From a virus (taxonomy: Duplodnaviria > Heunggongvirae > Uroviricota > Caudoviricetes): a stretch of 36,264 nucleotides of DNA. Positions 16,106 through 16,415 of the stretch are shown one piece after another (within the stretch, counting starts at the first letter, position 1; each line of letters begins with the position of its first letter). Below the pieces are notes generated by a model, which was given only the letters and a program-made list of their open reading frames with translations, made no database searches and was not told the DNA's origin. Where the stretch lies: the IMG/VR virus record IMGVR_UViG_2778261165_000017, positions 1 through 36,264 of that record. One strand, written 5' to 3'. The position numbers and the translations under genes were made by a program.

Positions 16106-16181
16106 GGCCCTTTAGCTCAGTGGTGAGAGCGAGCGACTCATAATCGCCAGGTCGCTGGTTCAAATCCAGCAAGGGCCACCA
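16106..16181 (+). tRNA. tRNA with CAT anticodon, Ile2 (lysidine)-like / Met-type
   Basis: Cloverleaf folded by hand; 7-bp acceptor stem GGCCCTT/AAGGGCC; anticodon loop CTCATAA; closely resembles E. coli ileX as recalled; CCA encoded. Confidence 0.85.
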
Positions 16182-16182
16182 A

Positions 16183-16259
16183 CCGCCACTAGCTCATCAG
16201 GAAAGAGCGTCAACCCTTTAAGTTGAGTGTGCGAGGTTCGAGTCCCCGGTGGCGGTCCA
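16183..16259 (+). tRNA. tRNA-like gene with atypical anticodon loop CCTTTAA (anticodon TTT if canonical, C at position 33)
   Basis: Perfect 7-bp acceptor stem CCGCCAC/GTGGCGG, perfect 5-bp anticodon stem, T-loop TTCGAGT with one A-C mismatch in the T stem; CCA encoded. Confidence 0.55.
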
Positions 16260-16261
16260 GT

Positions 16262-16337
16262 GCCGACTTAGCTCAGTAGGTAGAGCAACTGACTTGTAAT
16301 CAGTAGGTCACCAGTTCGATTCTGGTAGTCGGCACCA
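16262..16337 (+). tRNA. tRNA-Thr (anticodon TGT)
   Basis: Acceptor GCCGACT/AGTCGGC; anticodon loop CTTGTAA; T-loop TTCGATT; CCA encoded. Confidence 0.8.
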
Positions 16338-16340
16338 TAT

Positions 16341-16415
16341 GCGGGCATCGTATAATGGCTATTACCTCAGCCTTCCAAGCTGATGATGCGGGTTCGATTC
16401 CCGCTGCCCGCTCCA
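16341..16415 (+). tRNA. tRNA-Gly (anticodon TCC)
   Basis: Sequence matches E. coli glyT as recalled; anticodon loop CTTCCAA. Confidence 0.85.

Follow-up and report, generated by a model that had tools for sequence, protein, structure and literature searches.

Introduction

Does a phage tRNA gene whose anticodon loop lacks the near-universal U33 still serve as a tRNA, and in what capacity? The question is raised by tRNA2, the second of four tRNA genes (tRNA1 to tRNA4) lying between the late terminator and the lysis genes of a lambda-like prophage of Escherichia coli, which is the stretch of DNA analyzed here (IMG/VR record IMGVR_UViG_2778261165_000017, positions 1 to 36,264; hereafter the window). 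A sequence-only reading had noted in tRNA2 the loop CCTTTAA, with C at position 33, and had left three options for it: a Lys(UUU)-like tRNA with altered decoding, a suppressor or a pseudogene. The tRNA-Lys(UUU) is the sole lysine tRNA of E. coli and a favorite target of defense nucleases, and phage tRNAs have recently been shown to act as counter-measures to defense nucleases that destroy host tRNAs (PARIS, retron Eco7 and P2-OLD). To judge by its sequence, tRNA2 is genuinely a tRNA gene; it belongs to the phage argN lineage of arginine tRNAs and has been remodelled, so that it now carries a lysine anticodon together with C33. The view tentatively favored here, with confidence somewhat short of even, is that it represents an expressed Lys(UUU)-type tRNA which differs from the host tRNA-Lys at the PrrC and PARIS-AriB sites.

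An intact tRNA gene with a lysine anticodon

In the window ARAGORN calls four tRNA genes and no others, all on the plus strand, and the Rfam tRNA model RF00005 recovers the same four (72.5, 44.4, 77.7 and 64.9 bits for tRNA1 to tRNA4; gathering score 29 bits). Both confirm the tightly packed cluster described earlier, with spacers of 1, 2 and 3 nt and an encoded CCA at every 3' end. The features of tRNA2 are the following:

16183–16259, plus strand: tRNA2, argN-family gene with loop CCUUUAA and anticodon UUU (ARAGORN; RF00005, 44.4 bits; tRNA-Lys in the Prokaryotic Genome Annotation Pipeline, PGAP)
16210–16214 and 16222–16226, plus strand: anticodon stem, flanking the loop at 16215–16221
16215–16221, plus strand: anticodon loop, with C32 at 16215, C33 at 16216, U34 to U36 at 16217–16219, A37 at 16220 and A38 at 16221
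16234 and 16246, plus strand: A51·C63 mismatch in the T stem (model alignment)

Divided into its structural elements, the gene reads CCGCCAC UA GCUC AUCAGGAAA GAGC G UCAAC CCUUUAA GUUGA GUGUG CGAGG UUCGAGU CCCCG GUGGCGG U CCA. Sequence and model alignment bear out the C33 loop and the perfect acceptor (7/7) and anticodon (5/5) stems noted before, and the D stem is likewise fully paired (4/4). The T stem, described as mismatched, has a single unpaired position (4/5), namely A51·C63, which is inherited from the argN lineage and found in canonical argN. Conserved nucleotides are present at U8, A14, G18G19, A21 and the T54-Psi55-C56/A58 positions (T loop UUCGAGU), and the window copy is structurally intact, with no defect besides the mismatch common to canonical argN. 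The covariance score, which the sequence-only reading had named as the measure on which tRNA2 could fall, stands at 44.4 bits against the 29 of the gathering score (E-value 2e-06 over the whole window). In single-sequence folding the minimum-energy structure is not the cloverleaf (z-score −1.46), as is common for unmodified tRNA sequences.

Measured against elongator tRNAs, the 7-nt loop and A37 of tRNA2 conform and position 33 does not (C at 16216, not U). The loop is that of the host tRNA-Lys (CUUUUAA) with the change U33C; beyond the anticodon loop, a comparison of tRNA2 with lysT shows no overall similarity. The identity set of E. coli lysyl-tRNA synthetase (LysRS) comprises the anticodon UUU and A73, and of these tRNA2 carries the anticodon U34-U35-U36 (16217–16219). 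ARAGORN calls the gene TTT (Lys) and PGAP annotates an identical sequence as tRNA-Lys, in agreement with the Lys(UUU)-like label first given to it.

Descent from an arginine tRNA

The argN gene (Arg-UCG) of the ileZ-argN-argO cluster of Stx2 phages occupies the same slot as tRNA2, after an Ile2-type tRNA and downstream of Q, and the two clusters have a conserved promoter-like leader in common. Both genes show the T arm with A51·C63, U73 and the encoded CCA, and their acceptor stems agree bar one wobble-compatible change per strand (CCGCCAY/GUGGYGG). Since argN, with a canonical loop on the same body, scores 43.0 bits with the tRNA model, the low score of tRNA2 is due to the body of the family and not to C33. 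They differ in the loop, which is CUUCGAA in argN (U33, UCG) and CCUUUAA in tRNA2 (C33, UUU), and in the anticodon stem, with G30-C40 in argN and A30-U40 in tRNA2. The argN of Stx2a_F349 (1628–1704 of locus L002) has CAG at 28–30, CUG at 40–42 and A37, which together form the paired CNG motif of P2-OLD substrates (PMC12445682), whereas in tRNA2 and in the Arg(UCU) forms described below A30-U40 removes this motif.

The nearest relative of tRNA2 is an Arg(UCU) form found in the same Ile2-X-Thr-Gly slot of other E. coli prophages (e.g., locus L009). Its anticodon stem (UCAAC/GUUGA) and cluster architecture are identical to those of tRNA2, and the cluster is 93.6% identical over 16090–16416. From its loop, CUUCUAA, that of tRNA2 departs by two transitions, U33C and C35U; tRNA2 accordingly has U in place of C35, an identity element of arginyl-tRNA synthetase. 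The Arg(UCU) form has a fully paired T stem (A51-U63), carries G73 or A73 and scores 56.4 bits, and its commonest version differs from tRNA2 at 12 of 77 positions. A scan of IMG/VR for single-step intermediates (U33 with UUU, or C33 with UCU, on the same stem) returned only three chance matches, none of them within a tRNA, which suggests one origin of the tRNA2 loop and subsequent spread, although it neither dates the changes nor speaks for selection. The argN ancestry, the inherited character of the mismatch and the dozens of often non-canonical loops that occur in the same slot (see below) were not mentioned in the sequence-only reading, the interpretation of which is partly supported.

A putative stand-in for the host lysine tRNA

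If the favored reading holds, tRNA2 would be co-transcribed with its three neighbors and released by the normal tRNA-processing enzymes. Remodelling of the loop from the Arg form CUUCUAA (UCU) to CCUUUAA would equip a foreign body with U34-U35-U36-A37-A38, as found in the anticodon and 3' loop half of host tRNA-Lys(UUU), and in late infection the product would fill the niche of that tRNA. Because LysRS reads mainly the anticodon, tRNA2 would probably be charged with lysine, if inefficiently, and would read AAA and AAG. The determinant of N6-threonylcarbamoyladenosine at position 37 (t6A37), U36-A37-A38, is retained in the gene; bacterial TsaBD makes no base-specific contact with U33, and t6A37 is independent of U33 in bacteria (PMC13276492).

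The anticodon of tRNA2 is that of the host tRNA targeted by PrrC and AriB (PMC2610378, PMC12409363). PrrC cuts 3' of U33, with tRNA-Lys and tRNA-Arg UCU/CCU as major substrates (PMC2610378); tRNA2 has C33 at this site, and Arg UCU/CCU are the other anticodons of its own sub-family. AriB cuts tRNA-Lys(UUU), Thr(UGU) and Asn(GUU) at U36AAUC↓A41, the change U39A abolishes cleavage, and a phage tRNA-Lys(UUU) rescues cells (PMC12409363, PMC12445682). Where AriB needs U36-A-A-U39-C40↓A41, tRNA2 has U36-A-A-G39-U40-U41, and compared with the P2-OLD motif it is without the CNG pair (CAA/UUG). Because it differs at the PrrC and AriB sites, tRNA2 would keep lysine codons readable after destruction of the host tRNA-Lys. 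Codon supply does not explain a lysine tRNA in the cluster, because lysine codons are common and the host tRNA-Lys is abundant, given host codon frequencies and tRNA gene copy number.

Distribution and variation in E. coli

Among 5426 complete E. coli genomes, 798 (~15%) have a tRNA2-like sequence: 279 carry the exact sequence, 474 a version at 95–99% identity and 45 one at 90–95%. Such a sequence is found in 15 phage genome records as well, induced or isolated phages included (vB_EcoM-606R7 and vB_EcoS-689R5, both exact; PhiR47_1, Evi and PPompW prophages of Shiga toxin-producing E. coli). The exact allele and a 98.7% allele are annotated by PGAP as tRNA-Lys.

By segregating sites in 55 aligned loci tRNA2 is the most variable gene of the cluster (16, against 4 in tRNA1, 12 in tRNA3 and 6 in tRNA4), yet by substitution events it is no worse than the adjacent thrU copy: in about 115 in-register loci, tRNA2 shows 23 distinct events, 8 of them pair-keeping and 5 pair-breaking, and the thrU copy 28. 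Among 139 tRNA2 copies with hand-classified variants, 10 stem changes keep pairing and 8–9 break it; the skew of a first sample (7 pair-keeping vs 1 breaking) was lost in the larger ones.

Loop diversity in the same slot of related phages

The position taken by tRNA2 (slot 2) was followed in related phages and prophages by collecting loci with T-arm or sub-family-specific stem patterns, all of which were run with ARAGORN. The sampling was aimed at the slot-2 family, so that counts are not population frequencies; the contrast in loops between slot 2 and its neighbors stands, because the neighboring tRNAs come from the same loci. The slot-2 architecture is seen in 52 or more loci. In 217 slot-2 genes there are more than 35 different anticodon loops, while each neighbor shows two loop sequences, one of them dominant (loop kept in 182/183 copies of the Ile2-type tRNA, 152/157 of Thr and 170/171 of Gly). 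A T-arm scan of genome contigs and a 16-nt loop scan of metagenomes gave mostly chance matches to unrelated DNA, together with only about 12 Enterobacterales members and about 20 further copies.

The 69 unique slot-2 sequences nearly always have fully paired acceptor, D and anticodon stems with compensatory changes. The anticodon stem is 5/5 paired in 66 of them, with pair 27-43 as A-U (33), U-A (22) or G·U (13), and CCA is encoded in all 69. Pair 51-63 is A·C in 34, A-U in 25, G·U in 7 and G-C in 3, and the discriminator is U in 32, A in 28, G in 8 and C in 1. Loops of 7 nt prevail (44 sequences), with 12 sequences each at 5 and 6 nt and a single one at 8 nt; position 33 of the 7-nt loops is C (17), A (17) or U (10). 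U34 is found in 17 of 19 distinct 7-nt loops, with C32, A37 and A38 mostly retained, and since U34 is kept nearly all 7-nt slot-2 anticodons read A-ending codons, like the rest of the cluster. Together with the recurrent UUU anticodon and the altered neighboring tRNAs described below, this speaks against mere drift of the loops.

Three sub-families exist beyond that of the window: an A33 type (CAUUUAA, CAUAUAA, CAUUGCC and others), a type with 5–6-nt loops (NNNAU, CANNNU) and a type with AUUUUAU/AUUUGAU. The prophages that carry them come from Salmonella, Shigella, Pseudescherichia, Enterobacter, Yersinia, Ewingella and Rosenbergiella. Only the window's sub-family lies above the RF00005 gathering score, sub-families B, C and D not being reported. 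The anticodon UUU appears in three slot-2 sub-lineages with different stems, preceded by C33, A33 (CAUUUAA) or U33 (AUUUUAU). Among the short-loop members, the pairs L247/L264, L249/L258 and L081/L249 have identical bodies and flanks of about 1 kb that are 96–97% identical, with loops (e.g., UAAAU, UUAAU, UUUAU) differing at 1–2 of 5 positions; here the loop apparently evolves more quickly than the DNA around it. A search for reverse complements of slot-2 loops within 3 kb on either side, as a pairing target in cis, showed no enrichment relative to the loops of other loci.

The thrU copy next to slot 2 has changed from UGU to UUU in five loci (e.g., L060, L091 and L121, 1528–1603), where the loop CUUUUAA of host tRNA-Lys stands on a Thr body with A73. 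On sequence grounds this represents a second, independent switch to a Lys anticodon in such clusters. A further observation concerns the Ile2-type tRNA of L110, with the loop CCUAUAA in place of CUCAUAA, again C33 followed by U34; its anticodon UAU could allow AUA to be read without lysidine. In L018, L041 and L098 an 82-nt tRNA-like gene of the slot-2 family, absent from the window, lies about 640 nt downstream of the cluster. It has the acceptor CCGUCAC/GUGACGG, the T arm CGGGG UUCGAGU CCCCG and CCA, and is called Val(aac) by ARAGORN; by our reading its anticodon region is odd (loop ACGUAUU) and its variable region long.

A broader proposal, which we consider doubtful, is that slot 2 (the argN family) across Enterobacterales holds a class of phage tRNA-like genes with constant body and CCA and a diversifying loop, and that their RNAs, refractory to cleavage, would stand in or act as decoys for the wobble-U tRNAs (Lys UUU, Arg UCU/CCU and others) on which anticodon nucleases such as PrrC, RloC and PARIS AriB act. 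The C33 Lys-type gene of the window would then be the commonest E. coli member of the class, an identification offered with the same doubt.

Alternative explanations

Several observations weigh against the view of tRNA2 as a nuclease-proof lysine tRNA. Its discriminator is U73 (16256) and not A73 of the LysRS identity set, and its body is of Arg type, with C1-G72 and the A51·C63 mismatch; the stem differences at the AriB site were inherited from this body and did not evolve for resistance. Ribosome binding needs the U-turn, which the near-universal U33 enforces (PMC13276492); C33 is therefore expected to make decoding less efficient, and U73 likewise should come at a cost in efficiency. UUU could arise repeatedly without selection because C-to-T bias acts on UCU, and a C-to-U mutation bias on UCU or CAU could explain part of the recurrent UUU/U34 pattern; the intermediates that were not found are compatible with a single origin of the loop. 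As tRNA3 keeps the host thrU anticodon arm, which predicts sensitivity to AriB and P2-OLD, the cluster is not a coherent set of resistant tRNAs. Finally, PGAP skips two common alleles of tRNA2, one with C4U/U8C/C11U and one with a 1-nt D-stem deletion, yet annotates the flanking tRNAs (checked at 401–477 of L468, NZ_CP029369, for U8C and at 401–476 of L469, NZ_CP027546, for the deletion). D-stem-deletion alleles account for about one quarter of the E. coli carriers and U8C alleles for another quarter, so that together about half of the 798 are unannotated. For the pseudogene option raised by the sequence-only reading the signs are mixed, with an intact cloverleaf in the window copy and defects in these two alleles elsewhere.

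The same alleles, common and not called by PGAP, would fit if tRNA2 is a decoding-dead remnant, an Arg(UCU) tRNA disabled by U33C and C35U and hitch-hiking in a mobile tRNA cassette. This is the chief rival of the favored view, to which we nevertheless give clearly less than even weight. C33 and U73 are both wrong for a lysine decoder, and the loss of an Arg(UCU) tRNA for a redundant lysine tRNA makes no sense as codon supply, with AGA and AGG used in the phage at 6.4 and 4.6 per 1000 codons, about three times the host frequency. The high count of segregating sites points the same way, as do the 5-, 6- and 8-nt loops and A/T-rich triplets of the wider family, which resemble drift in an unconstrained loop, and the scores of sub-families B, C and D below the Rfam gathering score. 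In one version of this explanation the folded body is possibly still needed as an RNase P substrate releasing tRNA1 (1 nt upstream) and tRNA3 (2 nt downstream), since with spacers of 1–3 nt it would be relevant to the maturation of its neighbors, to judge from RNase P processing of polycistronic tRNA transcripts. However, the anticodon stem is dispensable for RNase P and is nonetheless fully paired, with compensatory changes, in nearly all unique members; U34, C32, A37 and A38 are largely conserved in 7-nt loops; and the sole defect of the window copy is one common to canonical argN. Furthermore, polymorphism in tRNA2 does not exceed that of the thrU copy, its stem changes preserve pairing more often than they break it, and the exact tRNA2 sequence persists in 279 genomes. 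The members that drift would explain have also another possible meaning: with 5-, 6- or 8-nt loops, A33/C33 or a pyrimidine at 37 they cannot decode normally, yet paired stems, T loop and CCA are retained in 69 of 69 unique sequences, as in a non-decoding tRNA mimic. Such a molecule, with a Lys-like loop and a non-U33 nucleotide, would bind uncut to a tRNA-Lys-targeting enzyme, be it an anticodon nuclease or some other defense protein directed at tRNAs, and act as a competitive decoy under strong late transcription, an explanation that we regard as improbable. It would best account for the non-decoding members and for the freely varying discriminator, expected if charging is irrelevant. Loop diversity confined to slot 2 and the loop differences between otherwise nearly identical loci fit it too, and the authors of the AriB study suggest competition by over-expressed viral tRNAs as a possible mode of AriB inhibition (PMC12409363). 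On the other hand, there is no demonstrated precedent for such a decoy tRNA and no named partner enzyme, high abundance or very tight binding would be required, and the canonical Arg members of the family resemble ordinary decoders. In the P2-OLD study, moreover, the rescuing phage tRNA left the host tRNA unprotected, which favors replacement over competition there (PMC12445682).

The suppressor option, by which tRNA2 would read a stop codon or shift the frame, is scarcely credible and was rejected. It draws on the oddity of the loop alone, in which U33 forced onto the first U would give UUA as the next triplet, and on the ARAGORN call Stop(tta) for a single distant member of the family, with the loop CATTATT. 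Counted from the 3' stack, however, the standard 7-nt loop of tRNA2 has the anticodon UUU, which reads a sense codon and is not complementary to a stop; ARAGORN and PGAP both call Lys; and no sign of interrupted late genes is seen, the homologous RefSeq locus being annotated with complete late genes.

If tRNA2 works as a lysine tRNA, it would be a temperate-phage counter-measure built by re-use of an arginine tRNA body, and it would show that bacteria can make use of a tRNA without the near-universal U33, perhaps because this position adjoins the site of PrrC cleavage. If it is a remnant, it would be a clear case of a dead tRNA kept in a tightly packed cluster, with a bearing on cluster processing. 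In either case annotation pipelines treat its alleles inconsistently despite their frequency among complete E. coli genomes. The interest of the system lies mainly in the family-wide loop pattern and in its direct testability, as a constant body with a highly variable loop provides natural variants that probe the tolerance of anticodon nucleases, modification enzymes and the ribosome.

Relation to other phage tRNAs

The closest conceptual precedents of tRNA2 are the tRNA-Lys of phage T5, the phage tRNA-Thr genes that counter P2-OLD, and loop-mutated mycobacteriophage tRNAs (PMC10264068). The T5 tRNA-Lys(UUU) escapes PARIS AriB and resembles tRNA2 in being phage-encoded, in its UUU anticodon and in a 3' anticodon-stem strand unlike the AriB site U36AAUC↓A41 of host tRNA-Lys (PMC12409363). 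AriB resistance and rescue of infection have been demonstrated experimentally for the T5 gene and are predicted for tRNA2, which has an Arg body, C33 and U73. The T5 gene is a canonical lysine tRNA with U33.

Phage 21 has a tRNA-Asn(GUU) and a tRNA-Thr(UGU) directly after tR' and before an S21-type holin gene (1592–1747 of L464, OL657228), an arrangement like that of the window. Their sequences show no relationship to the tRNA genes of the window, and their loops are canonical. The phage 21 tRNA-Thr protects against P2-OLD (PMC12445682); the tRNA-Thr of the window is host-like and not a diverged resistant version. Asn(GUU), Thr(UGU) and Lys(UUU) are the AriB targets (PMC12409363); judged by their anticodons, the Asn and Thr genes of phage 21 together with the Lys-type gene of the window bring all three reported targets within lambdoid late-operon cassettes.

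In tRNAs of mycobacteriophage cluster C1 and coliphages, the first part of van den Berg et al. (2023; PMC10264068) describes loop substitutions at or beside anticodon-nuclease cut sites, as proposed for tRNA2; that part mentions no change at position 33, where tRNA2 has C33, and states that coliphages with tRNA-Lys(UUU) rely on repair by tRNA ligase, not on loop changes. Literature searches covering ileZ/argN/argO, phage tRNAs with C33 or U33, and tRNA decoys or pseudo-tRNAs turned up no account of tRNA2, its family or the loop diversity of the slot. The cluster itself is a known kind of element; what is new is a gene of the argN lineage with a Lys anticodon and C33.

The neighboring tRNA genes and the prophage

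The other three tRNA genes of the cluster are ordinary:

16106–16181, plus strand: tRNA1, Ile2-type, anticodon CAU, ileZ homolog (ARAGORN; RF00005, 72.5 bits; PGAP tRNA-Ile)
16262–16337, plus strand: tRNA3, Thr(UGU), copy of host thrU (ARAGORN; RF00005, 77.7 bits)
16341–16415, plus strand: tRNA4, Gly(UCC), identical to host K-12 glyT (ARAGORN; RF00005, 64.9 bits)

In alignment, tRNA1 is identical to ileZ of Stx2a_F349 (Stx2 phage F349). Codons read by tRNA1, tRNA3 and tRNA4 (AUA, ACA and GGA) are used in the open reading frames (ORFs) of the phage at 6–16, 9–14 and 13–16 per 1000, respectively, above the host values, and fit the classical rare-codon picture. A single change, C62U (T at 16323), separates tRNA3 from K-12 thrU; it is private to the window, with C in all 116 related copies, and turns the A52·C62 mismatch of thrU into a Watson-Crick pair. 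With the host thrU anticodon arm, tRNA3 retains both the P2-OLD motif (CUG/CAG with A37) and the AriB site (UAAUC↓A), as these sites are described elsewhere (PMC12445682, PMC12409363), and is for this reason not a resistant variant. The glyT copy, tRNA4, also carries a paired CNG motif (CAG/CUG).

The setting of the cluster includes the following features:

15201/15207–15896, plus strand: late antiterminator Q gene (ORF; the matching position in a 98% identical RefSeq locus is annotated as bacteriophage antitermination protein Q)
15880–15908, plus strand: candidate pR'-like late promoter, TTGCAA-17-TATATT (consensus scan; putative function)
15954–15989, no strand assigned: tR'-like intrinsic terminator, hairpin followed by a T run (inverted repeat and terminator scan)
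16068–16096, plus strand: second promoter-like site, TTGCAA-17-TATTAT, 10 nt upstream of tRNA1 (putative function)
16708–16923, plus strand: class II (S21-type) holin gene, 71 amino acids (ORF; homologous RefSeq locus; match to the phage 21 holin region)

The position of the pR'-like candidate, directly after Q, agrees with that of the annotated pR' of phage 21, and a sub-threshold isrK/isrJ-like match at 15912–15985 overlaps the terminator hairpin. The leader segment holding the second promoter-like site is conserved in the PPompW and Stx2a_F349 clusters, and this site may support transcription of the cluster in lysogens, besides Q-dependent read-through. The holin gene is the first lysis gene downstream of the tRNA cluster and is followed by lysozyme, a P27-type terminase, HK97-type head genes and lambda-type tail genes. 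Between the cluster and the holin gene lie two long perfect hairpins, with 11-bp and 14-bp stems (16422–16467 and 16475–16547), which match no family in an Rfam search, and after them a terminator-like hairpin (16623–16638).

Other genes of the prophage are DicF, dicB-type early genes, hok/sok, DUF968, RusA and Q. The DicF antisense RNA (4431–4482, minus strand, 76.4 bits) and the sok antitoxin RNA with a hok-type ORF (13015–13190, plus strand, 117.8 bits) are both ordinary in Qin-like prophages.

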